DNA from: Candidatus Daviesbacteria bacterium
GTDB lineage: Bacteria > Patescibacteriota > Microgenomatia > Daviesbacterales > UBA10151
DNA: 64,000 nt
NCBI GenBank assembly: GCA_016186955.1
Contig: JACPKP010000007.1
Coordinates: forward strand, 1,962-65,961
Direction of reading: 5' to 3'
Below are positions 5,481 to 50,268 of the stretch, one piece after another. The position numbers and the translations under genes are program-made. How positions within the stretch are numbered: the first letter of the stretch is position 1; each line of letters begins with the position of its first letter. The notes beneath the pieces are model-generated. The model made no database searches, had not been told where the DNA came from, and was given only the letters and a program-made list of their open reading frames with translations.

Positions 5481-6902
<1,422 letters not shown>

Positions 6903-6968
6903 TCACACCTCCGAGGTGTGATATTTCTACAACAGTTGATTGACAAAGGGTTTGTTTGGTGTTAATAG
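6903..6968 (+). promoter_or_regulatory. 19-bp perfect palindrome TCACACCTCCGAGGTGTGA followed by candidate sigma70 promoter (TTGACA-17-TAATAG)
   Basis: Palindrome at 6903-6921, TTGACA at 6940-6945. The same palindrome and a TTGACA recur at 29979-30038. Confidence 0.4.
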
Positions 6969-9170: not shown

Positions 9171-12100
9171 ATGTTTGAAAAAAACATTATCCAAAAAGGC
9201 CTGTCTATCCGGCAGGCAGGCATAGCCCATCTGATGCTGCTAATTGCTGTGGTAGGGCTGGTGGCATTCCTGCTCATCTCCAACACTTTTGATTTTAAGA
9301 ATAAGATTTTCAATGCCCTGTTCCCAAAACCTGCTTCAAAAGCAGCTGAAAATTTAGATACGACTAAAATTATTTCAAATGAGCTTTTAGTAAAATTAAA
9401 ACCTGAAATAGCAAATGTTTTAAAAGGTAAAGTGGAAACTGCAGCACTTACAGAAACTGGAATAGCCTCATTTGATGAATCTTTGAAGAAAGCAAAAGTT
9501 AAGAAAATTGAGTTTGTATCTAAAAAGTCTAAAGTTAATAAAGGTAAAAGAGTTCAAAACCCTAATTTCAGCAGTGACCATGTTGATAGATGGTTTAAAT
9601 TAACTCTAGCAAACCCTCAAGAAAAGTTGTCTGTTGATGGAATTATACTGGATTCAGATCCAAAGTTAAATAACAGTCAACTTAATGCTAGTGTTCAAAG
9701 TCCATCAACATCTCGAAGCAATAGATTGTTTAACCTGAAACCTAAACCAACAAGTGAGTCGAGTTTTCAGCTAAAGGATCGTTCTATTCCCGAGCCAACA
9801 TTAGAGGCTAATAAAAATCTTGGATATGGATTATTAGCTGATTCGATGAAAGAGTTAAAGAAAAATTCTCAGATTGAAGTGGTGGAACCGAATTACATCT
9901 ATCATAAGTTCGAAGTGACCACGAATGATTTTTATTTTAATTCACCATTAAATGAACTTTGGGATTTAAAAAGAATTAATATTTCAAAAGCTTGGGATTT
10001 AACAATGGGGAGTAAGTCAACAGTGGTAGCTGTAGTTGATTCGGGTATTGATTATACACATCCTGATCTTTTGGATAATATATGGATTAATCCAGGTGAA
10101 AGTGGTGGTAAAGAGAATAATGGCATAGACGATGATAGCAACGGTTTTATAGATGATTATAGGGGATATGATTTTGTTACAATTGATCCAAGAAAAGAAG
10201 ATGTTTTAGATACTACTGATAATGATCCTATGGATGAGTTAGGGCATGGTACTCATGTTGCTGGGATAATTGGGGCTTTAGGAAATAATGATCCTGATCA
10301 TTCAATAGACACCGGCAAGCGGATGGTAGGAGTAAGCAATATTAGTTTAATGGCGGTGAAAGGATTGAACGCTAATGGTGAAGGATTAATAAGTGATTTG
10401 GGCGCAGCTATAAGGTATGTAACGGATAATGGGGCTGATGTTATAAACATGAGTTGGGGGGGAATGGGGAAAAGCCAATTTTTGGATGATCAACTTCAGT
10501 ACAGCTACAACAGGGGCGTGGTTTTGATTGCAGCTGCAGGTAATAGTGCTATTAATGCAGCTTATTTTAGTCCCGCTAGTTCGTCATATGTTATTACTGT
10601 TGCGTCCTCTAATGACCAGGATTCTTATTCCTGTTTTTCCAACTTTGGTTTCAAAATAGACCTTTCTGCTCCAGGAGGCGATTCTTCAAGTTGTGGTGGG
10701 GGCGGAAAGAACATTCTTTCCACAATTTCTAAGACTCACAGCAGTTCATTTTCCATATATGGTTGTTGTTATGCAGTTGCAGCAGGTACATCTATGGCGA
10801 CACCCCATGTTGCTGGAACTGCAGCCTTGCTTTTGACGCTTCATCCTGACTGGACTCAGGAGATGGTCAGACAAGCTTTGAGAAAAGGTAGTGATGATAT
10901 CGGGCCTCCTGGTTTTGACCTTGATACAGGATATGGCAGGTTGGATGTATTCAAAACCTTAAGTTGGCAAAAACCGTTATCAGTTAAAATAACCTATCCT
11001 ACCGAAAGTACGCTTTTTTCAACAACTAATATTCAAATTTCAGGGATAGTCAGTGGTGAAAATTTAAGCAATTGGAAACTCGAATATGCTTCTTATTATG
11101 ATCAAAATAATTGGCAGCTTTTAAATAGCGCCACCGTACCTGTGAATTACGGGCTTTTAAAAGATTGGGATATAACATCTTTGCTTGATAAGCCTTATAT
11201 TTTGAAACTTACAGCAACAGATCAGTCAGGGATAATTTATGAAGATAGGGTTGCAGTGGTAATAAATCAATTGATTTTGGATGATCCACCGCTTGCATAC
11301 CCAGATAACCGGTTTAGGGATTTTGCAGTTTATAACATAGGGCAGAAAGTAGTTATCAAAGGCACTGCAGCTCAGGCTAACTTGAAAAATTATCAGGTTA
11401 AAATTTATAAAGCCAATACATACGCAGAGATTACAAACGTCAAGATAGCCTTAACAAATGACGGATTGCAAAAGGTAAGAAACGGCATTTTAGGAACATG
11501 GGATACGAGTGGTCTTGCTCAGGATATGTATATTGTTGAACTCAGGGCTAACTTATCCGACGGAAGTTACAGCGCATTAGGTGGGACAGTATTGTTGGAT
11601 AATTTTGTTCATTCAGGTTGGCCAAAAAAGATCTTTGATTATGAAGGTAGTAATTGGTATTTACCCTCGCCATATGGTCATTTAATCACTGAAGATATAG
11701 ACGGAGACGGAAAAAAAGATCTGCTGACCGCTTATGGCGACAAAGTGGTTATTTATAATGGTGATGGAGGGGTTTTATCCGGATGGCCACAAACAGTTGA
11801 TCCATTTAATAAATTTGAATCTATTATTAAAGGGCCTACGGTTGGAGATTTAGATAATGATGGTAAACCCGAAATAGTGGCAGCTGCAAATTCTGTATCC
11901 GTCGAGACGGGCACATTTTTATTAAATGATGCTTTAATCTTGATTTGGCGTTCTGATGGGACTCTTTTTCCTGGTTGGCCAAAAAGGATATCGGGGATTA
12001 AAAATCCTTTCATAGTATTGAGTGATGTCGATGACGATGGTCAACAGGATATAGTATTAGAAAGTAGTTCTGGTGTGAATGCGGATCCTGCAAGGATTAC

Positions 12101-23643: not shown

Positions 23644-23652
23644 ACCGCGTTA

Positions 23653-23719
23653 GGCACAAAAGGCGTCCCCTTTTGAGGCTAAATTAATTTATACCCCCTT
23701 GTTTTAACTGTAACTATTT
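23653..23719. repeat. Y-repeat copy 1: 67-nt exact duplicate of the 3' end of the regulator gene (24481..25785)
   Basis: Identical to 24457-24523. Its reverse complement encodes EIVTVKTRGYKLI*. Confidence 0.7.
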
Positions 23720-23723
23720 TTAA

Positions 23724-23749
23724 AATCCCACCCCCTGGGTGGTCCTGAG
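23724..23749. repeat. X-repeat copy 1 (variant, CCCACC-CCCT-GGGTGG hairpin)
   Basis: AAAATCCCACCCCCTGGGTGGTCCTGAG. Confidence 0.5.
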
Positions 23750-24449
23750 TATAGGTTTCCTTTCATCGAAAAGTTGCGGGCACAACAATTATAAGATATC
23801 ATTCTTGTTTATGGAGAGAATCAGTGTGCAGGAAGCAGGGTTAGAAGGTTTACCCAGGATTAGGGGACATCATCTAAATAAACTGAAAGAGCTCTATGTT
23901 TTTATGAATACTAAAAGGGAATCTTTATCCGAATCAGGATATCAAGGTTCTTTGTCAGGAGAAATGGAAGCTTTAATCAAATTTTTTATTCAGGAACATA
24001 GCAGCGATTTGTTGACATTTGTAGATCCTGCAACCCGTACTTTTGGTTTATCTCAAGAGTGGATGATGAGTTATATAAACGATACAATTGGAGGTATTGA
24101 AGCCGAGAAAGTTAAAATATACAATCAAAAAACATATGAAGCGATTGTAAAATATATTTCATATCCGGCAAGCCAACAAGTTCTATTGACAGTTACCCCG
24201 GATTTTATTTGCAGATTATGTTTAGTGGGAACACATTGTTTAAAAAGCTCAAAATTGATGCCACTTGATTATAGAGAAATCAGAGAATTTTCAAAGTTCC
24301 AAATAAACAGGAGAAGGGATATGCAAATTTATACGGAGGAATTTAAATTTAGCGATCGCCTGAAGCCATTAATCACTAAAGTAGTGTTAACCACCTTTGG
24401 AGATATTAGGTTTTACTTATCTTTTGGTGGAATCCCACCCCCGGGTTAG
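23739..24449 (+). CDS. hypothetical protein on a repeat-flanked cassette
   Basis: ORF bracketed by X/Y repeats. The true start may be MERISVQ at 23811. No recognisable domain. Confidence 0.4.
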   Translation: MVLSIGFLSSKSCGHNNYKISFLFMERISVQEAGLEGLPRIRGHHLNKLKELYVFMNTKRESLSESGYQGSLSGEMEALIKFFIQEHSSDLLTFVDPATRTFGLSQEWMMSYINDTIGGIEAEKVKIYNQKTYEAIVKYISYPASQQVLLTVTPDFICRLCLVGTHCLKSSKLMPLDYREIREFSKFQINRRRDMQIYTEEFKFSDRLKPLITKVVLTTFGDIRFYLSFGGIPPPG

Positions 24450-24523
24450 TCCTAGGCACAAAAGGCGTCCCCTTTTGAGGCTAAATTAATTTATACCCCC
24501 TTGTTTTAACTGTAACTATTTCA
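24431..24523. repeat. X-repeat copy 2 plus Y-repeat copy 2 (native 3' end of the regulator gene)
   Basis: AATCCCACCCCCGGGTTAGTCCTAGG followed by the 67-nt Y sequence. Confidence 0.7.
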
Positions 24524-29877: not shown

Positions 29878-29978
29878 ATAAACTAATTATAATATTAAAT
29901 TACACTTTTTACAAAGATTGTTTAAGAAAACGTTTTTCTTAAACATTACCCCTCTGATGTGGCAGGACAATTTTAATA

Positions 29979-30038
29979 TCACACCTCCGAGGTGTGATAA
30001 AAATAGCTGTTGACAAATTGGATACAAGCTCATAGAAT
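29979..30038 (+). promoter_or_regulatory. 19-bp palindrome TCACACCTCCGAGGTGTGA followed by sigma70 promoter TTGACA-17-TAGAAT
   Basis: Second copy of the palindrome. The -10 lies only ~8 nt before the ATG at 30046, suggesting a near-leaderless transcript. Confidence 0.45.
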
Positions 30039-35526: not shown

Positions 35527-36324
35527 ATGATCCAGACATTACTGGGCACTAAAAAATTTATGACTTCAACTTATGATTCCCGCGGCAGGCGGGTGGGTGC
35601 AACAGTGGTTGAAATGAACCCGAATATGGTCACGCAAATTAAAGATAAGGAAGGGAAAGACGGATACGATGCTGTGCAATTGGGTTATGGAACTAAAAAG
35701 AGCGTAAAAAAACCCCAGATTGGTCATGCAAAAAAAGCCGGAGTTGAGGGTAAGATCAGGTGGATGCGTGAAGTTAGGGCTAGCGAGACTGTAAAACCTG
35801 GCGACCAGATCAGTTTGGGCCAGGTTTTTTCTGTTGGTGATGCAGTTAAAATAACAGGGGTAAGCAAGGGTAAAGGGTTTCAGGGTGGAGTCAGAAGGCA
35901 TGGATTCCATGGAGGGCCAAAAACCCATGGCCAATCAGACCGCCACCGGGCGCCAGGTTCCATCGGGGCCGGTACAACTCCGGGCCGGGTTTACAAGGGT
36001 AAAAGAATGGCAGGGCATATGGGAGTGGAGAGGGTGAGTTATAAAGGTTTGGAGGTTGTCAAAGTGGATAAACAAAACAACCTGTTGACTATCAAAGGCG
36101 GTGTGCCTGGTCCGGCAGGAGGATTTGTAATAGTTGAAAAACAAGGACGGATAAAAGGTTATACGCCACCACCTGAGGAAAAACCTGAAGAGGAAGAATT
36201 AGAGTCAAGTGACAACACCTCGGAGGTGAAGTCAGAAGAGCCAAAAGTTGAAGCAACAGAAGAGGTTGAATCTACTGAAAGTTCCGATGAGGTAAAGGAG
36301 GAAACAGGAAATGGCAGTAATTAA
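35527..36324 (+). CDS. rplC: 50S ribosomal protein L3 with acidic C-terminal tail
   Basis: L3 core (GVSKGKGFQGGVRRHGF); about 50 aa of Glu/Ser-rich extension. Confidence 0.9.
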   Translation: MIQTLLGTKKFMTSTYDSRGRRVGATVVEMNPNMVTQIKDKEGKDGYDAVQLGYGTKKSVKKPQIGHAKKAGVEGKIRWMREVRASETVKPGDQISLGQVFSVGDAVKITGVSKGKGFQGGVRRHGFHGGPKTHGQSDRHRAPGSIGAGTTPGRVYKGKRMAGHMGVERVSYKGLEVVKVDKQNNLLTIKGGVPGPAGGFVIVEKQGRIKGYTPPPEEKPEEEELESSDNTSEVKSEEPKVEATEEVESTESSDEVKEETGNGSN

Positions 36325-37180
36325 GTCAAAAGTCAAAAGCCCGTCTGCCGGACGGGCAGGTCAAAAGTCAAAAGTATCAAGAAAAGATTCTGTCGCCCCG
36401 AGTAACTCGGGGATCCAGAATGACAAAAAACCAAAAAAGACTAAAAAAGTTGCAGGAGTAAATAAGATTGCCACGTCCTCCGAAAAGGTTAAAAAACCTA
36501 TAGTTAAAACTAAGACAACATCAAATTTGTCAATTCCTGTTTATTCTCTGGCAGGCAGCAAGACCGCAGCAAGTTTGGCATTGCCTAAAGAAATTTTTGG
36601 CGCCAAAGTAAACAAAGCCTTGCTTGCCCAGGCGATGAGGGTTTACCTTAATAATCAGAAAAGCCATTGGTCAAATACCAAAACCCGTGGTGAAGTAAAA
36701 GGGTCAACCAGGAAAATTTTTAAACAAAAAGGCACCGGCAGGGCAAGACATGGGGCAATCAGGGCCCCAATTTTTGTGGGCGGGGGGATTGCTTTGGGGC
36801 CAAAAAACCGGAAGGTAGTTTTGGATCTGCCCGCAAAAATGAAAAATGCGGCGCTGGTTTCAGCCTTAGCACAAAAAGCAGATGAGAAGCAGGTTTTAGG
36901 GATCAGCGGCTTGGATAAAGCAAGCGGAAAAACCAAAGAGATGATAGGCTTAGTCACAAGAGTCCAGAGTCAAGAGTCCAGTAAAAAAAGTATTTTGATT
37001 GTGGTGGGGGAGAAGATAGAAAATGCTGCTAGGGCTGTGAGAAATATTACAGGGGTAGATTTACTGCAATTTGACCAGATTAATGCTTATGAAGTAATTA
37101 AACACCAAAGCCTGGTTTTAACAAAGGAAGCTGTTGAAAAATTGCAGGGAAGACTATTGGGTAAAAAGGAGGCTAAATAA
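36311..37180 (+). CDS. rplD: 50S ribosomal protein L4 with ~80-aa Lys-rich N-terminal extension
   Basis: L4 core from about IPVYSLAG. The N-terminal extension contains the palindromic element (36324-36374) in-frame. Confidence 0.9.
   Translation: MAVIKSKVKSPSAGRAGQKSKVSRKDSVAPSNSGIQNDKKPKKTKKVAGVNKIATSSEKVKKPIVKTKTTSNLSIPVYSLAGSKTAASLALPKEIFGAKVNKALLAQAMRVYLNNQKSHWSNTKTRGEVKGSTRKIFKQKGTGRARHGAIRAPIFVGGGIALGPKNRKVVLDLPAKMKNAALVSALAQKADEKQVLGISGLDKASGKTKEMIGLVTRVQSQESSKKSILIVVGEKIENAARAVRNITGVDLLQFDQINAYEVIKHQSLVLTKEAVEKLQGRLLGKKEAK
36324..36374. repeat. GTCAAAA(x2)-GCCCGTCTGCCGGACGGGCAGG-GTCAAAA(x2) palindromic element, in-frame in rplD
   Basis: Encodes KSKVKSPSAGRAGQKSKV; family members at 37599, 38199, 47643, 44466 and 49419. 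Confidence 0.75.
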
Positions 37181-37182
37181 AA

Positions 37183-37692
37183 ATGACAGCTGTTATATTA
37201 AAACCGTTGGTTACGGAAAAATCAATGTCGCTTGTCAAATCAGGAATGTTTACATTCCTGGTGGATAAAAACGCCACCAAAAGTCAGATTGGGAAAGCTG
37301 TTTCCGGGAGATTTGCAGTGGATGTTTTAAGTGTCAGTACAGTGAATATGAAGGGTAAAACCAAACTGCAAAAGAGCAGAAAAGGGTATTTTCAGAAACC
37401 ATCGTTTAAAAAAGCAATAGTCCAGCTTAAAAAAGGGCAAAAAATTGCTTTGTTTGAATCAGCAGAGAAAGAAGAAGTAGAAGTGAGGACAGCAGAAGGT
37501 GAAGTAGTTGGCAAAACCACAGAAAAAAAGAGTTTATTGGGGAGGACAAAGATAAAGATCAGCAAGCTGTCTCCTGTGGAGATTGAACAAAATACAGCAG
37601 TCAAAAGCCCGCCTGCCGGACGGGCAGGTCAAAAGGCAAAAGTTAAAAGTACAAGTAAAAAATTAAAAGTAAACAAGAAAGGAGCTAAGTAA
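37183..37692 (+). CDS. rplW: 50S ribosomal protein L23 with C-terminal extension
   Basis: L23 core; the C-terminal 70 aa are Lys-rich and contain the palindromic element. Confidence 0.85.
   Translation: MTAVILKPLVTEKSMSLVKSGMFTFLVDKNATKSQIGKAVSGRFAVDVLSVSTVNMKGKTKLQKSRKGYFQKPSFKKAIVQLKKGQKIALFESAEKEEVEVRTAEGEVVGKTTEKKSLLGRTKIKISKLSPVEIEQNTAVKSPPAGRAGQKAKVKSTSKKLKVNKKGAK
37599..37645. repeat. palindromic element copy in the rplW 3' extension (GCCCGCCTGCCGGACGGGCAGG flanked by GTCAAAAG)
   Basis: Encodes VKSPPAGRAGQKAKVKS. Confidence 0.7.
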
Positions 37693-37695
37693 AAA

Positions 37696-38556
37696 ATGGC
37701 GCTAATTAGTTACAAAGAAAACACACCAACCAGAAGGTTTATGACCAAGCTCGAAAAACCAAAGAAAAACGGTAAACATCATAAATCCCTGGTCAGTATA
37801 CTGCCGAAACAAAGCGGCCGGTCGCATGGCAAAGTTACAGTCCGCCACCAGGGCGGAAGGCACAAGAGATATTACAGGTTAGTTGATTTCAAAAGGAATA
37901 AATTTGGAGTAGAAGCAGTAGTGGAAGCTTTTGAGTATGACCCAAACAGGAATGTCAATATTGCCCTGGTTAAATATGCCGATGGTGAGAGAAGATACAT
38001 CTTAGCGCCTTCAGGTTTAAAGCCGGGGGATAGAGTGATATCAGGAGAAAGGGTTGAAGTAAAGGTTGGCAATGCCATGAAACTTAAAAATATGCCTGTA
38101 GGTACAATAGTCCATAATGTGGAGTTGACACCGGGCAGAGGAGGCCAGTTTGGGCGTAGTGCAGGTACAGGGTTGACTATCCAGGCGAAAGATAGCGGCC
38201 TGCCTGCCGACCTGCCTGACGGCAGTCAGGGCAGGCAGGGGTTTGCGCACTTGAAAATGCCCTCAGGAGAGATTAGAATGGTTCCCCTGGAGGCTATGGG
38301 GACTGTTGGAAGCTTGGGTAACGAAGAATGGAAGAATGTTACTTTTGGTAAGGCTGGAAGAAAAAGGCATATGGGGATCAGGCCGACTGTCAGGGGGACA
38401 GCCCAGGATCCCCACTCACATCCGCATGGTGGAGGAGAGGGCAGGTCAGGAATCGGCAGAAAAAGCCCCATGACGGTATACGGTAAAAAGGCAGTGGGAA
38501 ATACCAGAAAAAAGAATAAATGGACAAGCAAGTATATTTTGAAAAGGAGGAAATAG
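37696..38556 (+). CDS. rplB: 50S ribosomal protein L2 with ~14-aa internal insertion
   Basis: L2 core (HGGGEGR...). The insertion LPADLPDGSQGRQG is encoded by a ~41-nt palindrome. Confidence 0.9.
   Translation: MALISYKENTPTRRFMTKLEKPKKNGKHHKSLVSILPKQSGRSHGKVTVRHQGGRHKRYYRLVDFKRNKFGVEAVVEAFEYDPNRNVNIALVKYADGERRYILAPSGLKPGDRVISGERVEVKVGNAMKLKNMPVGTIVHNVELTPGRGGQFGRSAGTGLTIQAKDSGLPADLPDGSQGRQGFAHLKMPSGEIRMVPLEAMGTVGSLGNEEWKNVTFGKAGRKRHMGIRPTVRGTAQDPHSHPHGGGEGRSGIGRKSPMTVYGKKAVGNTRKKNKWTSKYILKRRK
38199..38239. repeat. GC-rich palindrome CCTGCCTGCCGACCTGCCTGACGGCAGTCAGGGCAGGCAGG in-frame inside rplB
   Basis: Outer arms CCTGCCTGC/GCAGGCAGG; shares the CTGCCGAC core with the intergenic copies. Confidence 0.65.
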
Positions 38557-38650
38557 AGTCTAGTCGCAAGAGTCCAGAGTCAAGTGAACGTCATTGCGAG
38601 GACTCCGATGGACATCGGAGGACGAAGCAATCTAATAAAAATTAAAAATT
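38556..38650. repeat. rplB-rpsS spacer element: GTCAAGA 7-mers, TCCGATG-GA-CATCGGA palindrome, AAAATTAAAAATT before the rpsS ATG
   Basis: A 94-nt spacer where these genes are normally adjacent. Confidence 0.5.
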
Positions 38651-38935
38651 ATGTCAAGATCATCATATAAAGGTCCGTATGTGGACGTCAAATTGTTAAA
38701 AAAAGTTAATGCACAAAAGGCTGATGGTGCAAAAACTCCGATTAAAACCTGGGCCAGAAGGTCACAGATTCCGCCTGAATTCGTGGGCCATACATTTTTG
38801 GTGCATCAAGGTAAGAATTTTGTGTCTGTTTATATTTCTGAATCCATGGTGGGGCACAAACTTGGGGAATTTGCGCCAACCAGAATTTTTAGGTCACATG
38901 GAAAGATGACTGAGAAAAGCGTAGCAAAAACATAA
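38651..38935 (+). CDS. rpsS: 30S ribosomal protein S19
   Basis: S19 signature [33 protein letters not shown]. Confidence 0.9.
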
Positions 38936-38941
38936 AACATA

Positions 38942-39418
38942 ATGGAGTATACAACAATACAAAAAAATATTACTACTTCGCCCAGGAAACTGAGGTTGGT
39001 GGCTGATATGGTGAGAAAAATGAGCCCAGAGCAGGCTGTAGAAATTTTGCAGTTTACCAATAAAGCGGCTGCTCAACCTTTGATCAAAGCCATCAAAACT
39101 GTTTTGGCAAACAGCAAAAAAGCTGATGTGGTTTTTAAAACCATTGAGATCAACGAAGGGCCAAAATTAAAAAGATACAGGGTGGGTACAGCCGGTAGAG
39201 GACGGGGCAGGCCGTACAGGAGAAGATGGAGCCATATAAAAATCGTTTTGATAGACGATTTAAATGTCAAAAGTCAAATGTCAAAAGTCAAAAGTACAGT
39301 TCAAAATGCAAAAGTAGAAGATAAGAAGGCAGCGTTAAAAGAAAAAGGAAGGGAGGGTAAAAAGAGTGTGCGGACTCCCGAAGTAGATCCTTCGACTCGC
39401 TACGCTCGCTCAGGATGA
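38942..39418 (+). CDS. rplV: 50S ribosomal protein L22 with C-terminal extension
   Basis: L22 core; the extension contains GTCAAAA/GTCAAAT 7-mer repeats (39266-39294). Confidence 0.9.
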   Translation: MEYTTIQKNITTSPRKLRLVADMVRKMSPEQAVEILQFTNKAAAQPLIKAIKTVLANSKKADVVFKTIEINEGPKLKRYRVGTAGRGRGRPYRRRWSHIKIVLIDDLNVKSQMSKVKSTVQNAKVEDKKAALKEKGREGKKSVRTPEVDPSTRYARSG

Positions 39419-41624: not shown

Positions 41625-41731
41625 TCGGACTGAAGCGAGAAACAATTACACTAATCCCTAATTGTTTCGAGCAAAGGAGATCGCTTGCCACAATTGTGTA
41701 ATCAATTGTGGACAAGGGAAAGGAAAACAAT
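41621..41731. repeat. intergenic element E copy 1 (GGTAATCGGACTGA...CCACAATTG-N6-CAATTGTGG...GGAAAGGAAAACAAT)
   Basis: Starts in the rplN stop codon and ends at the rplX ATG. Paralogous to 43397-43482. Contains a perfect 9-bp inverted repeat at 41689-41712. Confidence 0.65.
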
Positions 41732-42040: not shown

Positions 42041-42589
42041 ATGAAGACTTTAAAAGAAAAATATTTGGAGGAGGTGCAACCGAAAATGATGGAAGAGTTC
42101 AGTATTAAAAATGTTTTTGCAGCGCCTAAATTAAAAAAGATAGTTATCAATATGGGTCTGGCTGACGCAAAAGAGGATGCCGGTATTTTAGAAAAATCAG
42201 TGGTTAATGTTGCAGCTATTTCAGGCCAGAAGCCGGTTGTGACAAAGGCTAAAAAATCCATCGCAGCTTTTAAACTTACGAAAGGCGCTTCAATAGGGTT
42301 GATGGTAACTTTAAGGGGTGATAAGATGTATGCTTTTTTCAATAAACTTGTAAATATAGTATTGCCAAAAGTGAGGGATTTTAGGGGAGTTGCACAAACC
42401 GGCTTTGACAGCAAGGGAAATTATAATTTAGGTTTTAAGGAACTACTCATATTCCCTGAAATAAACTATAAAAATGTTGATAAACCAAGGGGGTTGCAGG
42501 TTACTATTAATACAACAGCAGAAAACAGGGAGCAGGGGAAAATGTTGCTAGAGCTGATGGGGATGCCTTTTAAGAAAGGGGACAGATAA
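42041..42589 (+). CDS. rplE: 50S ribosomal protein L5
   Basis: Typical L5. Confidence 0.9.
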   Translation: MKTLKEKYLEEVQPKMMEEFSIKNVFAAPKLKKIVINMGLADAKEDAGILEKSVVNVAAISGQKPVVTKAKKSIAAFKLTKGASIGLMVTLRGDKMYAFFNKLVNIVLPKVRDFRGVAQTGFDSKGNYNLGFKELLIFPEINYKNVDKPRGLQVTINTTAENREQGKMLLELMGMPFKKGDR

Positions 42590-42690
42590 AATTTTCAATT
42601 TAAAATTTACAATTTTCAATCAAATCTTAATTTTAAATTAAAACATTGGAAATTCATTGAAAATTAAAAACTGAAAATTAAAAATTAATT
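42588..42690. repeat. AT-rich intergenic repeat R copy 1 (AAATTTTCAATTTAAAATTTACAATTTTCAAT...AAAATTAAAAATTAATTT-ATG)
   Basis: Paralogs at 42887, 44381 and 49333. Confidence 0.7.
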
Positions 42691-42870
42691 TATGGCTAAG
42701 GTTAGTAATATAGTCAAGAAAAAAGTTAAATATGAAGTCCAAAAAGTGAACCGCTGTTTACGGTGTGGCAGGTCACGTGGTTTTATCAGACGCTTTGGTG
42801 TATGCAGAATTTGTTTTAGGGAACTTGTTTACCGCGGTTATTTACCGGGAGTAAAAAAATCATCATGGTA
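42691..42870 (+). CDS. rpsZ: 30S ribosomal protein S14 type Z (zinc-binding, 59 aa)
   Basis: [59 protein letters not shown] with a CxxC...CxxC motif. Below the 60-aa ORF-track cutoff; called by eye. Confidence 0.8.
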
Positions 42871-42886
42871 ATAGAAAGGAAAAAAG

Positions 42887-43004
42887 AGAAATTTTCAATT
42901 TAAAATTTACAATTTTCAATCAATGATTTAATGTTTAAATTTTGAAAATTAATCAAATGAAAATTCATTAAAAATTGAAAAATAAAAATTAAAAATTAAT
43001 TATT
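42887..43004. repeat. AT-rich intergenic repeat R copy 2
   Basis: Same head (GAAATTTTCAATTTAAAATTTACAATTTTCAATCAATGATTTAAT) and tail (AAAATTAAAAATTAATTATT-ATG) as copy 1. Confidence 0.7.
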
Positions 43005-43400: not shown

Positions 43401-43482
43401 TCGGACTGAGCGTAGCGAAGGAGATCGCTTGCCACAATTGTGTAACCAATTGTGGACAAGGGTAAAGAAAGGATAAAAATTT
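43397..43482. repeat. intergenic element E copy 2 (with CCACAATTG-N6-CAATTGTGG at 43432-43455)
   Basis: Starts in the rpsH stop codon and ends at the rplF ATG. Confidence 0.65.
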
Positions 43483-44038: not shown

Positions 44039-44374
44039 ATGTATAAGATCAAGCGGATGCAAAAACATAAAAAGATCAGGAAGGATATATCAGGGACTCA
44101 AGATAGGCCTAGGCTAGCTGTGTTTAAATCCAGCCAGCATATTTATGCCCAGATTATTGATGATACACAAAATAAAACCCTGGTGGATGCGTCAGACCTC
44201 AAGATAAAAAATGGTAAAAAATCAGACAAGGCATCAATGGTCGGTGAAGAATTGGCTAAAAAAGCTGTCAAAAGAAACTTAAAAAAAGTTGTTTTTGACA
44301 GAGGTGGTTTTAGATACCATGGCAGGATAATGGCTTTAGCAGAAGCTGCAAGGAAGGGAGGACTAGAGTTCTGA
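44039..44374 (+). CDS. rplR: 50S ribosomal protein L18
   Basis: L18 core ...RPRLAVFKSSQHIYAQIID. Confidence 0.85.
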   Translation: MYKIKRMQKHKKIRKDISGTQDRPRLAVFKSSQHIYAQIIDDTQNKTLVDASDLKIKNGKKSDKASMVGEELAKKAVKRNLKKVVFDRGGFRYHGRIMALAEAARKGGLEF

Positions 44375-44380
44375 GGAACT

Positions 44381-44507
44381 CAAATTTTCAAGTCACAATT
44401 TACAATTTTCAATAAATGATTTAATTTTAAATTTTAAACATTGAAAATTCATTGTAAATTGAAAACCTGTCTGCCGACAGGCAAGACTAAAAATTAAAAA
44501 TTAATTT
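44381..44507. repeat. AT-rich intergenic repeat R copy 3, carrying embedded GC hairpin CCTGTCTGCCGACAGG (44466-44481)
   Basis: Head CAAATTTTCAAGTCACAATTTACAATTTTCAAT, tail AAAATTAAAAATTAATTT-ATG (rpsE). Confidence 0.7.
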
Positions 44508-47313: not shown

Positions 47314-48091
47314 GGGAGAACTGGCGCTAATGAGAAAGAGTGGGGTTATTACTGCCAGGGCGTTGGGAGAAGTCTTGAAGAATGTCCGTGAAGGTATTAG
47401 CCTGATAGAATTGGAAAAAGTTGCGGAAAACCAGGTTGTCAAGTTGGGAGGAGAACCTTCATTTAAAACCGTCCCTGGTTACAGATGGACTTCCTGCTTG
47501 ACTATCAACAATGAGGTTGTACACGGAATCCCAAGGGATATTAAGTTGAAAAATGGTGATATCTTAAGTGTTGATTTAGGCGCAGTTTTTAAAGGCTGGC
47601 ATACGGATGCTGCATGGAGTGTGGTGGTGGGAAGTCAAAAGTCAAAAGCCCGTTTGCCGAACGGGCAGGTCAAAAGTCAAAATGATGAAAAAGAGAAATT
47701 TTTAGCAGTGGGGGAAGAGGCTCTATGGAAGGGGATTGGGCAGGCAGTGGATGGTAATAGAATAGGTGATATCTCCGGGGTTATACAGGAAGTTGTGGAG
47801 AGCGCAGGTTATTCAGTTGTGCGGGCGCTGGTAGGGCATGGGGTGGGCAGGGAGCTGCATGAAGACCCCGAAGTGCCGGGATATGGTAAAAAAAGTACAG
47901 GGCTCAAACTTATTGCAGGCATGACGCTTGCGGTAGAGGTGATTTACACCAGCGGGAAACCTGATGTAGTTTTGGATCCTGATGGTTGGACTATCACTAC
48001 TGCAGATGGAAGCCTGGGTGGACTTTTTGAGATGAGTGTGGTGGTAGGTGTAAAACAAGCTGAAGCGCTGACGGATTGGAGACAAAAGTGA
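47291..48091 (+). CDS. map: methionine aminopeptidase type I with ~25-aa internal insertion
   Basis: Pita-bread fold motifs. The true start may be the internal Met at 47324. The insertion is encoded by the palindromic element (47643-47690). Confidence 0.85.
   Translation: MAINTRTKGELALMRKSGVITARALGEVLKNVREGISLIELEKVAENQVVKLGGEPSFKTVPGYRWTSCLTINNEVVHGIPRDIKLKNGDILSVDLGAVFKGWHTDAAWSVVVGSQKSKARLPNGQVKSQNDEKEKFLAVGEEALWKGIGQAVDGNRIGDISGVIQEVVESAGYSVVRALVGHGVGRELHEDPEVPGYGKKSTGLKLIAGMTLAVEVIYTSGKPDVVLDPDGWTITTADGSLGGLFEMSVVVGVKQAEALTDWRQK
47643..47690. repeat. palindromic element copy in-frame in map (GTCAAAAGTCAAAAG-CCCGTTTGCCGAACGGGCAGG-TCAAAAGTCAAAA)
   Basis: Stem bases differ from the rplD copy in a compensatory manner (GCCCGTT/AACGGGC versus GCCCGTC/GACGGGC). 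Confidence 0.75.
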
Positions 48092-48934: not shown

Positions 48935-49330
48935 ATGGCAAAGAAAACAATTATAACAAAGAAAAAGATTACAACCGGAAAGCATATAAGCGCTGGAAGG
49001 ATCTACGTGACCGCCACCTTCAATAATACGCTGGTTACCCTAACTGATATGAATGGTCAGACTTTAGCTTGGAGCTCTTCAGGAAATGCCGGTTTTAAAG
49101 GAGCCAGGAAAGCCACGCCTTTTGCTGCAATCAGCGCTATTGAGAAGGTGGCGAAAAAAGGCAAAGAGGGTGGGTTGGCCACGGTTGAGGTATTTATCAA
49201 AGGCCCGGGGCCAGGAAGGGATGCTGCGATCAGGGCTTTAAGGAATGCCGGTTTAAATATTACTATGATTGCAGATGTAACGCCTGTACCGCATAACGGC
49301 CCAAGGGCTAAGAAAAGGAGAAGAGTATAA
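48935..49330 (+). CDS. rpsK: 30S ribosomal protein S11
   Basis: S11 core; the preferred start is the ATG at 48935, preceded by an AAGGAAACA SD. Confidence 0.9.
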
Positions 49331-49332
49331 AC

Positions 49333-49458
49333 TAAATTTTCAAGTCACAATTTACAATTTTCAATCAATGATTTAATTCTTAAATTTTAAACATTGAAAA
49401 TTCATTAAAAATTGAAAACCTGTCTGCCGACAGGCAAGACTGAAAATTAAAAATTATT
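49333..49458. repeat. AT-rich intergenic repeat R copy 4, carrying GC hairpin CCTGTCTGCCGACAGG (49419-49434)
   Basis: Near-identical to copy 3; tail AAAATTAAAAATTATT-ATG (rpsD). Confidence 0.7.
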
Positions 49459-50067: not shown

Positions 50068-50268
50068 ATGAGTTGTGAAAACTTAGATTTAAAAAGATTA
50101 ACAGGTGAAGAGTTATTTCATTTGATGGATCATCATCAGGATGGAATATGGTTGGCAACTGAAGAAATGCTGCAACACTGTAAGTCAAGTGGTGACATTA
50201 TGCGTGAGCTAGAAGAAAGAAATTTATTTGCAAAATATTTGGATCAAAGAGTTCAAAAGTTAATATGA
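50068..50268 (+). CDS. small hypothetical protein inserted between rpsD and rpoA
   Basis: 66-aa ORF whose stop overlaps the rpoA start (ATGA). Confidence 0.3.
   Translation: MSCENLDLKRLTGEELFHLMDHHQDGIWLATEEMLQHCKSSGDIMRELEERNLFAKYLDQRVQKLI

Follow-up and report, generated by a model that had tools for sequence, protein, structure and literature searches.

A palindromic heptamer repeat between ribosomal protein genes of a Daviesbacteria genome looks like a widespread insertional element of CPR bacteria

Introduction

The genomes of CPR bacteria (Patescibacteria) are tiny and gene-dense and are thought to be poor in mobile DNA; to our knowledge, almost nothing has been established about their promoters, translation signals and repeats. 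In the window studied here, a 64,000-nt stretch of DNA from a Candidatus Daviesbacteria MAG, four related repeats fill the spacers in front of four S-protein genes of the spc and alpha operons. What are these repeats, and do they serve the genes that they abut? A preliminary description, made from the letters alone, had proposed that they replace the Shine-Dalgarno (SD) motif of S-protein genes, and had named a MITE as the alternative.

Results

Four copies of one repeat abut S-protein start codons

The four repeats were found within 1–2 nt of the positions first proposed for them, together with an isolated piece of the tail:

42589..42690, + strand: copy 1, from the rplE stop codon to the rpsZ ATG; nhmmer E=8.6e-15 on the + strand and 5e-07 on the − strand
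42889..43004, + strand: copy 2, from the rpsZ stop region to the rpsH ATG; nhmmer match
44382..44507, + strand: copy 3, from the rplR stop codon to the rpsE ATG; composite with a nested GC hairpin; repeat family D9
49334..49458, + strand: copy 4, from the rpsK stop codon to the rpsD ATG; composite with a nested GC hairpin
38636..38650, + strand: mini tail only, TAAAAATTAAAAATT, two heptamers, adjoining the rpsS ATG (which starts at 38651)

Pfam assigned the genes 3' of the copies to S14, S8, S5 and S4, and rpsS to S19. With 9 S genes among the 31 cistrons, the placement of all four copies 5' of S-protein genes has a hypergeometric probability of about 0.004, calculated post hoc.

A repeat search assigned the copies to families D1, D2 and D9, and an nhmmer profile run over the window recovered these four and no others. 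Their mean column identity is 77% (MAFFT alignment A1). Copies 3 and 4, which lie 5 kb apart at unrelated junctions, are 95% identical, nested hairpin included, and copies 1 and 2 are 82% identical and have a private TTTAAA variant of heptamer 2. As the preliminary description had claimed, all four share a head, AAATTTTCAA(T/G)T(TAA/CAC)AATTTACAATTTTCAAT, and a tail, AAAATTAAAAATTA, which ends 0–3 nt from the ATG; the internal (C)ATTG(G/A)AAATTCATT turned out to be only approximately common to them. The alignment also confirmed the extra CCTGTCTGCCGACAGG hairpin that makes composites of copies 3 and 4, and the tail AAAATTAAAAATTA reported 5' of rpsS at 38638 is indeed there. Allowing up to 3 mismatches, the 17-mer AATTTACAATTTTCAAT matched the window 18 times versus 1.66 expected, a number reached by 0/100 shuffles.

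The head of copy 1 consists of four heptamers (AATTTTC/AATTTAA/AATTTAC/AATTTTC), followed by a short centre, the core CATTGGAAATTCATTG and the tail GAAAATT/AAAAACT/GAAAATT/AAAAATT. TRF detected period-7 arrays in the tails of all window copies. This 7-nt periodicity had been overlooked, as had the palindromy of tail and head and the SD-like motifs that survive 5' of each copy.

The junctions are empty in relatives and the insert separates SD from ATG

Comparison with sister genomes, suggested at the outset, was carried out on seven related Daviesbacteria, and the full element was absent at these junctions in 7/7. The junctions were tight or differently filled in the closest relative (L065, whose S5 is 85% identical) and in L001, L002, L058, L060 and L062; L064 had merely a 50-nt mini-version, at L18/S5. 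Many S5 gene calls among the relatives were over-long.

In L065 the S14/S8 junction reads TGGTAA-AGGAAAGGGAAT-ATG, i.e. an SD and then the ATG. At the same junction in the window, the homologous AGAAAGGA is kept 5' of the insert and the element lies between SD and ATG. SD-like motifs were found 5' of each copy and of the rpsS mini tail:

42575..42582, + strand: SD-like AAAGGGGA, end of rplE, about 110 nt from the rpsZ ATG; the site is empty in L002
42874..42880, + strand: SD-like GAAAGGA, directly 5' of copy 2; homologous to AGGAAAGG of L065, there 4–5 nt from the rpsH ATG
44373..44378, + strand: SD-like GAGGAA, overlapping the rplR stop codon, directly 5' of copy 3
49315..49320, + strand: SD-like AAGGAG, end of rpsK, 5' of copy 4
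38626..38631, + strand: GGAGGA, 18 nt upstream at rpsS, whose ATG starts at 38651

No SD-like motif was present between element and ATG in the four window copies, although about 19/31 cistrons of the cluster have one. The proposal that the element replaces the SD was correct in that none adjoins the four starts, but comparison with L065 indicates that the SD was separated from the ATG rather than replaced. Filled and empty sites together document this displacement from the start codon.

One possibility considered was that the element folds so as to carry the retained SD close to the AUG, in the manner of phage T4 gene 38, where a hairpin places an upstream SD next to the AUG. The window fits such bridging, with an SD-like motif 5' of all four copies. 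Yet, across the family described below, SD-like motifs 5' of the copies were not enriched (12/47 versus 13/47 and 17/47 in control windows). A further point against bridging is that the unpaired tail would keep SD and AUG about 18–20 nt apart, and it was rejected as a family property.

The repeat belongs to a family found in many CPR lineages

The family was gathered with one exact gapped pattern fixing 26 nt. This yielded 55 loci, 52 of which had the full architecture and an nhmmer match on both strands. The lineages that carry the element are Saccharibacteria, Moran-, Kaiser-, Blackburn-, Campbell-, Falkow-, Davies-, Roizman-, Portnoy-, Peri-, Magasanik- and Doudnabacteria and other Patescibacteria. 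One locus is labelled Gammaproteobacteria, and the named relatives of its AtpD are all Patescibacteria or Roizmanbacteria. The matches in Flavobacteria (L011, L035, L053) were chance hits in coding sequence, lacking both the heptamer architecture and the nhmmer match.

Throughout the family the layout is constant: an (AATTTNC)n head, a variable centre, a CATTGAAAATTCATTG core and a (GNNAATT)n tail. One arm repeats CAAT and the other ATTG, each with a period of 7 nt, and the three positions in between vary. Head and tail are reverse complements, which makes the element palindromic, and the nhmmer profile matches every copy on both strands. Members measure 90–150 nt, mostly 100–130 nt, contain no ORF and have a GC content of 18±4% in hosts of 33–55% GC. 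Up to 4 copies per 8-kb locus occur elsewhere, and two copies in one locus (L057) are 92% identical. Identity is 0.73 within a genome versus 0.71 between phylum-level lineages (p=0.08), an effect so marginal that higher within-genome similarity was rejected as a demonstration of bursts. Orthologous copies in related Moranbacteria differ by the insertion or deletion of a 15-nt internal unit. We found no description of this CPR element in Rfam or in the open-access papers searched.

The elements fill their spacers completely, leaving about 0 nt to the stop codon on one side and to the start codon on the other, and either orientation occurs (tail-to-start in about 22 cases, head-to-start in about 32). 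Judged from gene calls that are crude in the family loci, 47 junctions with an element are co-directional, 5 convergent and 1 divergent, versus 266/36/24 in the background (p=0.29). In three cases an ORF listing confirmed an element between convergent gene ends with no start codon near. At the level of the family, copies are thus not bound to one orientation or to gene starts, an outcome that the preliminary description had itself named as refuting its reading. The link to S proteins is likewise local to the window: the genes 3' of 45 other copies are unrelated housekeeping genes, and essential genes flanked by the element across CPR include those for r-proteins, dnaK, atpD, murG and dnaE. As the downstream genes are unrelated, the element is not an r-protein-specific leader. 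The same S11/S4 junction that copy 4 occupies does hold a family member in a distant Kaiserbacteria MAG (L008). Taken as a whole, the element looks like a widespread, apparently undescribed insertional repeat of many CPR bacteria and not like a regulator of S-protein genes.

The nested hairpin is related to a second inserted module

The hairpin nested in copies 3 and 4 resembles a module, D5, that occurs within genes of the window:

44465..44482, − strand: GC hairpin ACCTGTCTGCCGACAGGC within the copy 3 tail; D5-related
49418..49435, − strand: the same GC hairpin in the tail of copy 4
36323..36387, + strand: D5 module, consisting of AAAAGTC heptamers, the GC hairpin CCCGTCTGCCGGACGGG and AAAAGTC heptamers, inside the rplD frame
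37591..37655 and 47632..47696: further D5 copies, in the rplW C-terminus and in map, respectively

The pattern of a hairpin plus a T-run is present on the minus strand only (44482–44465 and 49435–49418). On that strand the hairpin of copy 3 is followed by TTTCAATTT, so that it scores as terminator-like, antisense to the operon. On the + strand it is followed by CAAGACTAAAAA and is not an intrinsic terminator for the operon. In Map, D5 forms a 17-aa in-frame insertion in a loop, and the relatives are without it. Hairpin/heptamer modules related to the element do, then, insert in this Daviesbacteria genome.

The arms show no compensatory pairing

The fold of copies 1 and 2 was no better than that of shuffles (z=-0.98 and -0.36), and the z of -4.27 for copy 3 is due to its GC hairpin. 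Among members from other genomes, 9/14 fold into one long end-to-end hairpin (z<=-2.9), matched by 0–2/200 shuffles. RNAalifold nonetheless found 0 pairs in the family, and Rfam gave no match to the element at gathering or permissive thresholds. In a 22-pair model, 90.0% of cells pair versus 89.7±0.3 with shuffled partners (93/500 shuffles as high), and there was no compensatory change between the arms (covariation 0.041 versus 0.035 shuffled; 64/500 as high). A conserved RNA structure was rejected on the RNAalifold, covariation and Rfam results. Judging from these alignments, the arms behave like terminal inverted repeats rather than RNA helices.

Another idea was that the arm nearest the start decays selectively (G to A, with weaker pairing near the AUG). 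A first test gave 66% versus 89% G (p=0.0005), a signal that arose because the search pattern had fixed the head arm. An orientation-neutral re-test was null (137/39 versus 131/45, p=0.53; Wilcoxon p=0.96), and the idea was rejected.

Discussion

A probable insertional repeat, tolerated by its hosts

We favour, with a probability of about 0.55, the reading that the element is a non-autonomous, MITE- or ERIC-like palindromic repeat, co-transcribed and tolerated, that leaves four cistrons of the window without an adjacent SD. [quoted passage not shown] The CPR element, too, is small and non-coding, ends in inverted repeats and is dispersed in copies whose presence varies between relatives. What the preliminary description had offered as its alternative is in this respect the closer reading. 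Its repeat family, its composites and its missing SDs all stand, and the S-protein link and the replacement of the SD do not.

By this account the element would land in, or survive only in, the tiny stop-to-start spacers of compact genomes, and for that reason would abut both neighbouring genes. The Daviesbacteria lineage would have gained copies at four spc and alpha operon junctions, with recent intragenomic copying yielding the pairs 1/2 and 3/4 and a second module, the GC hairpin, becoming nested in the 3/4 subfamily. Each insertion would have moved the ancestral SD about 110–125 nt from the start codon. Transcription of the operon presumably includes the element, and translation of the four S-protein cistrons would then have to begin in an A/U-rich leader that lacks an adjacent SD. 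That mobility was the mechanism of spread, that the repeat is co-transcribed and that initiation is SD-independent are points that we infer.

Several observations sit less easily with mobility. No target-site duplication was detected: the best flanking direct repeat averages 1.78 nt versus 1.95±0.14 for mismatched flanks, and 181/200 controls were at least as high. Since the boundaries of the element are fuzzy, a 2-nt AT-rich duplication could still be present. A Pfam scan of the window ORFs revealed no transposase or recombinase, and no cognate transposase was seen among the 45 genes 3' of family copies. A phage vector was rejected, with 0 matches in 2.9 million viral contigs. The placement of all window copies before S genes and the S11/S4 site in Kaiserbacteria weigh against a MITE-like reading. 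In addition, the even similarity across lineages and the fixed 18% GC point to a lasting, radiation-wide sequence constraint, one not usually seen in a purely selfish MITE and also compatible with a functional site.

Possible functions of the heptad arms

The family may instead be a conserved CPR cis-regulatory module, in which the arms are outward promoters and/or A/U-rich, SD-independent initiation regions; we consider this, and with it the translation enhancer or internal promoter of the preliminary description, possible but unlikely. In the window, rpsZ, rpsH, rpsE and rpsD would thereby acquire short-leader or leaderless transcripts, or enhanced initiation. A promoter-like site lies in the tail of copy 1:

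42657..42685, + strand: TTGAAA-N17-AAAAAT, 9/12 positions, a consensus match only

The tail of copy 2 has its equivalent at 42975–43003, and all four heads carry the mirror image, TTGAAA-N17-GAAAAT, on the minus strand. Each arm has an outward TTGAAA-N17-(G/A)AAAAT that agrees with the sigma-70 hexamers at 9/12 positions, and in every arm the 17-nt gap between TTGAAA and (G/A)AAAAT follows from the 3 x 7 nt periodicity. The −10-like hexamer of copies 1 and 3 ends 6 nt short of the ATG, which would put a start site on the A of the ATG or right beside it. An SD between element and start is present in just 1/47 downstream genes family-wide, and the sequence is kept across the radiation regardless of host GC. 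Correia elements contain real promoters (PMC10969869), and translational control has been proposed for start-abutting heptamers, r-protein operon sites included (MacGregor 2015, PMC4679880).

These points are offset by others. The hexamers match at 9/12 positions only, in AT-rich sequence, and the element is neither enriched at gene-start junctions nor depleted at convergent ends. With a palindrome, transcription from one of the two arms would in every case run antisense into the upstream gene. The four initiation regions have an unremarkable predicted opening energy (6.0 versus 7.1±2.7 kcal/mol, p=0.26), and the notion that they are unusually open was rejected. Finally, close relatives express these genes with no element present.

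No better than tentative, in our estimation, is a superphylum-wide cis-element whose heptad arrays are read by a CPR factor, be it a sigma factor, ribosomal protein S1 or a dedicated heptad-binding protein. Such a factor would give the abutted gene SD-independent or leaderless expression, or would exert chromosome-level control. It would explain why the consensus survives in phylum-level lineages and in hosts of 33–55% GC with no compensatory pairing, and why Daviesbacteria and Kaiserbacteria both carry a copy at the S11/S4 junction.

The arrays might instead be DNA sites for a conserved CPR protein, for example of the ribbon-helix-helix or nucleoid-associated type, that binds consecutive 7-bp units. 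They would then serve to organise or segregate the chromosome, or to repress globally, and not to express the gene next to them. The omega repressor of plasmid pSM19035, whose targets are 7-bp heptads arrayed in both direct and inverted orientation, provides a precedent. The conservation of CAAT/ATTG every 7 nt around three variable positions, the symmetry of the arms without compensatory change and the constraint on the sequence across the radiation, whatever the host GC, would all agree with this. No candidate protein was identified, however, confinement to spacers is equally expected of any tolerated insertion, and gain and loss between close relatives argue against an essential architectural role at particular sites. 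We regard such sites as rather improbable.

A structured RNA within the operon mRNA, such as a hairpin processed by RNase III, a stabiliser of the mRNA or an autoregulatory r-protein leader of the S genes, appears very unlikely. The end-to-end folding of 9/14 members from other genomes would favour it, as would the cleavage of Correia TIR hairpins by RNase III and the effect of ERIC on RNase E decay (PMC10969869). Against it stand the 0 pairs of RNAalifold, a helix model no better than shuffled partners, the lack of an Rfam match, the shuffle-like folds of copies 1 and 2 in the window, and the occurrence of copies in both orientations and between convergent genes.

A separate origin at each junction by replication slippage of heptamers is the least credible account. 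In its favour, tandem arrays of several different heptamers abound in the genome, the Moranbacteria orthologues differ by a 15-nt unit, and, according to Mrazek 2007 as cited in PMC4679880, no long simple-sequence repeat is commoner in bacteria than the heptamer. Against it, the copies have in common private variants, a 95%-identical nested hairpin and a core and centre that are not repetitive, and the same 100–130-nt architecture recurs in dozens of lineages; the non-periodic core that they share already refutes this origin for the most part. Slippage probably merely modulates arm length.

What the family implies

One palindromic family is common to many CPR lineages and fits exactly into the spacers of essential genes, from stop codon to start codon. 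Should it be selfish DNA, then a small repeat is able to persist in, or move horizontally across, a whole radiation, and essential cistrons tolerate the loss of an adjacent SD. Should it be functional, it would be the first candidate for a CPR-wide cis-regulatory signal. In either case the element may serve as a marker for CPR contigs, being carried by MAGs labelled Gammaproteobacteria or Bdellovibrionales, of which the one that we checked proved to have CPR-like genes. Assembly breaks are probably caused by the element as well, and so, as the over-long S5 calls suggest, are miscalled gene starts.

Comparison with known repeat systems

The likenesses to the Correia, ERIC, RUP, BOX and SPRITE repeats considered at the end of this section concern features, and no sequence similarity is claimed. 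Like REPs and BIMEs, the CPR element is an extragenic palindrome without detectable target-site duplication that lies between co-directional or convergent genes. REPs are 20–40 nt long, GC-rich and marked by a GTAG or CGTC tag (PMC3733652). The CPR element differs from REP/RAYT systems in its 100–130 nt, its 18% GC and its lack of a GTAG/CGTC tag, and no RAYT or Y1 transposase was seen in the window.

Rickettsia palindromic elements (RPE) were compared with the D5 module only. As in RPE (PMC10969869), D5 is a small palindromic repeat inserted in frame in essential genes, with its peptide in a surface loop (Map, L4, L23). Unlike RPE (about 150 nt), it measures about 50–65 nt, has AAAAGTC heptamers around a terminator-like hairpin and belongs to an unrelated lineage.

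The TAACTGA heptamers are intergenic direct repeats of marine Beggiatoaceae, some Cyanobacteria and Bacteroidetes (MacGregor 2015, PMC4679880). Like the CPR arms, these tandem heptamers end a few nt from start codons, usually without an SD, have sites inside r-protein operons, also upstream of S4, precede diverse genes and are patchily distributed (PMC4679880). In contrast, the CPR unit is GAAAATT/AATTTTC, arranged as an inverted pair around a non-repetitive core to form a discrete palindrome, which also abuts 3' ends and occurs between convergent genes. The STRR of heterocystous cyanobacteria, which are simple, GC-containing arrays, share tandem 7-nt intergenic units with the CPR element and differ in having no palindromic composite or conserved core.

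The closest parallels are the MITE-like palindromic repeats Correia/CREE of Neisseria, ERIC/IRU of Enterobacteriaceae and RUP, BOX and SPRITE of pneumococcus. These are likewise non-coding, about 100–150 nt long, with long imperfect inverted arms and many copies per genome; they lie in spacers within operons, are co-transcribed (as the CPR element presumably is) and carry outward sigma-70-like hexamers; one small repeat may be nested in another, and presence varies between relatives (PMC10969869). The CPR element differs from them in having no detectable TA or other target-site duplication and no known cognate IS, and in arms that are arrays of a 7-nt unit rather than unique TIRs. And whereas those repeats are restricted to a genus or family, the consensus of the CPR element is kept across a superphylum, in hosts of 33–55% GC.

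Four copies of a palindromic heptad repeat in the ribosomal-protein cluster

The S10/spc/alpha ribosomal-protein cluster lies on the + strand of the window, its translations running from rplC (35527) to rplM (52017). Its S5 protein is 100% identical to the 30S ribosomal protein S5 of Candidatus Daviesbacteria bacterium at NCBI, and no rpmD is found between rpsE and rplO, an absence that is usual in CPR bacteria. L5, S14, S8, L18, S5, S11, S4 and S19, the genes around the elements, were confirmed with Pfam. The four repeat copies reported in the preliminary description were recovered, as repeat families D1, D2 and D9:

42589-42690, + strand: element copy 1, before rpsZ
42889-43004, + strand: element copy 2, before rpsH
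44382-44507, + strand: element copy 3, before rpsE, with an extra CCTGTCTGCCGACAGG hairpin
49334-49458, + strand: element copy 4, before rpsD, with an extra CCTGTCTGCCGACAGG hairpin

These copies align at 77% mean column identity, and each extends from the upstream stop codon to 0-3 nt short of the next ATG. Copies 3 and 4 (95% identical) are indeed composite, both containing the extra GC hairpin, and copies 1 and 2 (82% identical) have a private second-heptamer variant in common. The tail described before rpsS is also present, as a two-heptamer tail alone. Two properties had not been remarked: a 7-nt periodicity, detected with Tandem Repeats Finder, and the fact that the tail, (G/A)NNAATT x4-5, is the reverse complement of the head, (AATTTNC)x4. 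These arms flank a centre that is AT-rich and variable, together with a conserved core, CATTGAAAATTCATTG. The 17-nt head motif, with at most 3 mismatches, was found 18 times in the window versus 1.66 expected, and none of 100 shuffles had as many. A profile search of the 64-kb window matched copies 1-4 and nothing else, each on both strands because of the complementarity of head and tail.

The element is spread across CPR bacteria

Scanning 185,579 species-representative genomes with AATTTACAATTTTCAAT-N20-50-AAATTCATT yielded 55 loci, 52 of which share the same complete architecture; three Flavobacteria matches were due to chance, inside coding sequence. By database label, the family occurs in Saccharibacteria, Moran-, Kaiser-, Blackburn-, Campbell-, Falkow-, Davies-, Roizman-, Portnoy-, Peri-, Magasanik- and Doudnabacteria, Microgenomates and unclassified Patescibacteria. 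It was also found in TPA MAG contigs labelled 'uncultured Gammaproteobacteria' or 'Bdellovibrionales' (L006, L015, L017, L022, L029, L034, L044, L045, L050, L051, L054 and L057). These labels look wrong from the sequence of one locus, L022, whose ATP synthase beta subunit (AtpD) has only Patescibacteria or Roizmanbacteria as named relatives; on that basis we treated off-CPR labels as unreliable and the family as restricted to CPR bacteria.

In an alignment of 49 copies (A2), a conserved motif recurs with 7-nt spacing in each arm, CAAT in the head and ATTG in the tail, and the three positions between successive motifs vary freely. Copies L013 and L051, from other lineages, have unrelated GC hairpins inserted directly after the core. 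The GC content of the element is 18 ± 4% in loci of 33-55% GC.

The element separates the Shine-Dalgarno motif from the start codon

We compared the clusters of seven Daviesbacteria whose S5 is 75-85% identical (L001, L002, L058, L060, L062, L064 and L065). All seven lack the full element at every one of the four junctions; at L18/S5, L064 has a mini-palindrome of 50 nt that is of this type. The S14/S8 spacer reads TGGTAA-AGGAAAGGGAAT-ATG in L065, the closest relative, versus TGGTAA-TAGAAAGGAAAAAAGAGA-(115-nt element)-T-ATG in the window, indicating that the start codon is separated from the ancestral SD by the element. The proposal that the element replaces the SD holds only in that the four genes lack an adjacent SD; the SD is displaced instead, and SD-like motifs persist just 5' of each window element. 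About 19 of the 31 cluster cistrons have an SD at normal spacing; rpsZ, rpsH, rpsE, rpsD and rpsS do not. The elements would be transcribed within the operon mRNA, and the four cistrons would initiate from an A/U-rich leader without an adjacent SD. Initiation regions downstream of the elements are predicted to open at an ordinary energy cost.

A promoter scan returned TTGAAA-N17-AAAAAT/AATTAT in the tails of copies 1 and 2 and, on the minus strand, TTGAAA-N17-GAAAAT in the heads of all four, these being only 9/12 matches in AT-rich DNA. The 17-nt spacing of the hexamers is automatic, since three heptamers make 21 nt.

S5 start calls at the L18/S5 junction are inconsistent: the L002 call (10001-10633, 210 aa) begins directly at the L18 stop, leaving no spacer; the L001 call (1181) begins downstream of an in-frame ATG at 1071. 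Among S5 homologues P0003-P0120, many gene calls in relatives are 190-232 aa long versus about 160-170 aa. Such miscalled start codons appear to result from upstream repeats or spacers. A 66-aa ORF without Pfam match separates rpsD from rpoA (50068-50268); it has 71 aa in L058/L059 (L058 16031-16246), being present in some Daviesbacteria and missing from others.

Other repeats in the window and in relatives

The D5 repeat (AAAAGTC heptamers, GC hairpin CCCGTCTGCCGGACGGG, AAAAGTC heptamers) and the D12 spacer repeat occupy other sites of the cluster:

36323-36387: D5, in frame, rplD (L4) N-terminus
37591-37655: D5, in frame, rplW (L23) C-terminus
47632-47696: D5, in frame, loop of map
41670-41726: D12, before the L-protein gene rplX
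43414-43470: D12, before the L-protein gene rplF

These in-frame insertions of D5 resemble the RPE style. In Map, D5 forms a 17-aa loop insertion that L002, L064 and L001, three of six relatives in the comparison, lack entirely; L058 has a long insertion of its own, and L060 and L062 have shorter ones. Terminator-like matches score highest at the five GC hairpins of the cluster (three D5, plus those of copies 3 and 4), and all five lie on the antisense strand, which fits purifying selection against sense-strand terminators inside the operon.

D12 consists of GGAGATCGCTTGCC, a 9-bp hairpin (CACAATTG..CAATTGTG) and GACAAGGG. Its flanks, CCCTTGTC...GCAAGCGATCT, recur in reverse orientation with different stems in the L14/L24 spacer of L064 and the S4/rpoA spacer of L060; judging from these sequences, the stems look as if they covary between the window and relatives. 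Another hairpin repeat, CCTTGCC-TTTTGGC...GCCAAAA-CGTAA followed by an SD, is found in L064 and L002 spacers (L2/S19, S3/L16, infA/S13 and L14/L24).

Heptamer arrays (AAAAGTC/AAATGTC, AGAGTCC/AGAGTCA) occur in the rplV C-terminal extension (39262-39302), near the rplD 3' end (36957-36981) and in the rplB/rpsS spacer (38553-38591), the coding ones translating to Lys/Ser-rich tails. In the tgt ORF (5496-6902), arrays of AAAAGTC x4-5 and AAGAGTC x4-5 (5819-5851 and 5970-6002) surround about 120 nt; its Pfam TGT match falls into two separate stretches, suggesting that here too a heptamer-flanked segment was inserted in frame. The 24-nt palindromic ATCACACCTCCGAGGTGTGATATT at the tgt 3' end (6902-6925) and its 96% complementary inverted partner (29975-29998) may be a shared terminator-like hairpin. 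Perfect 69-nt direct repeats (23651-23719 and 24453-24521) flank a 236-aa ORF without Pfam match (23739-24449) and could represent a recent duplication or cassette.

Mobile repeat or regulatory site

We considered that the palindrome might act as an RNA structure. A single long hairpin folds better than shuffles in 9 of 14 family members (z ≤ -2.9). In the window, copies 1 and 2 fold no better than shuffles (z = -0.98 and -0.36), and the good scores of copies 3 and 4 are owed to the GC hairpin only. RNAalifold predicted no consensus base pairs and Rfam had no match to the element. With 22 pairs modelled explicitly, the paired cells amount to 90.0% versus 89.7 ± 0.3 in shuffles (93/500 as high), the covariation score is 0.041 versus 0.035 (64/500 as high), and a change on one side of an arm pair is not accompanied by a change on the other. 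These negative tests indicate that two equivalent arms are conserved and that base-pairing is not selected; by analogy, the arms resemble the terminal inverted repeats of transposons or symmetric sites for a protein.

A conserved role in cis-regulation or protein binding, both taken together, appears rather unlikely. All four window copies precede S-protein genes (hypergeometric probability about 0.004, with S genes making up 9 of the 31 cistrons; a post hoc value). At family level, an S-protein-specific regulatory function is not supported. Judged with a crude ORF caller, strong copies directly adjoin (about 0 nt) the stop and start codons on either side; the tail faces the start codon in about 22 copies, the orientation seen in the window, and the head does so in about 32. 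Junctions were co-directional in 47 cases, convergent in 5 and divergent in 1, versus 266/36/24 in the background of the same loci (chi-square p = 0.29). Three convergent cases were confirmed by ORF listing, the element lying between SerRS and PBP (L030), between an ORF and MiaA (L052) and between PBP and an 87-aa minus-strand ORF (L009). A Pfam census of 45 downstream genes included holB, glycosyltransferases, Hsp70, MreB, MurG, ABC transporters, SMC, NrdD, SHMT, DnaE, GltX, AtpD and an EF-Tu-type GTPase (PF00009 only), among others. The family is therefore tied neither to S-protein genes nor to gene starts, and copies abut ATG codons because the spacers they occupy in these compact genomes are very short.

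Both the window and a Kaiserbacteria locus of 52% GC have a family member at the S11/S4 junction. In L001, this junction has another heptamer array, CTAAACG x4 (6817-6913), adjoining the rpsD ATG and accompanied by an inverted head, TAGCGTTTAG, an element-like architecture with a different unit; in Beggiatoa, it is occupied by TAACTGA repeats (PMC4679880). Such repeated occupancy may reflect junctions tolerating uncoupling, local hopping or a yet-unseen function.

We favour, with a probability of about 0.55, the reading that a MITE/ERIC-like palindromic heptad repeat, CPR-wide and apparently undescribed, was inserted between SD and ATG. Mobility is supported by the gain or loss of the element between Daviesbacteria relatives, by near-identical copies at unrelated junctions (window copies 3/4 and both L057 copies) and by the nesting of a second module, the GC hairpin, whose relative D5 entered Map in frame and is also found in L4 and L23. 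Yet no target-site duplication was detected, no transposase was found in the window and no copies in viral contigs, and identity within genomes (0.73) barely exceeds that between genomes (0.71; p = 0.08). This low excess, together with the independence from host GC, points to a lasting, radiation-wide sequence constraint, which could be imposed by a mobilising enzyme or host factor.

Comparison with known systems

No earlier description of the element turned up in Rfam or in the open-access literature searched. It departs from canonical MITEs in target-site duplication and from REP sequences in size, composition and tag, so we place it among small palindromic intergenic repeats, outside the named families. 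By analogy, it would function most like the MITE-like intergenic palindromes of the Correia and ERIC type, in which nesting occurs and which provide both promoters and RNase sites (PMC10969869). For its start-proximal heptamer arrays, a close parallel is offered by the TAACTGA repeats of Beggiatoaceae, of unknown function, which adjoin start codons, usually without an SD, and also lie inside r-protein operons, including before S4 (PMC4679880).
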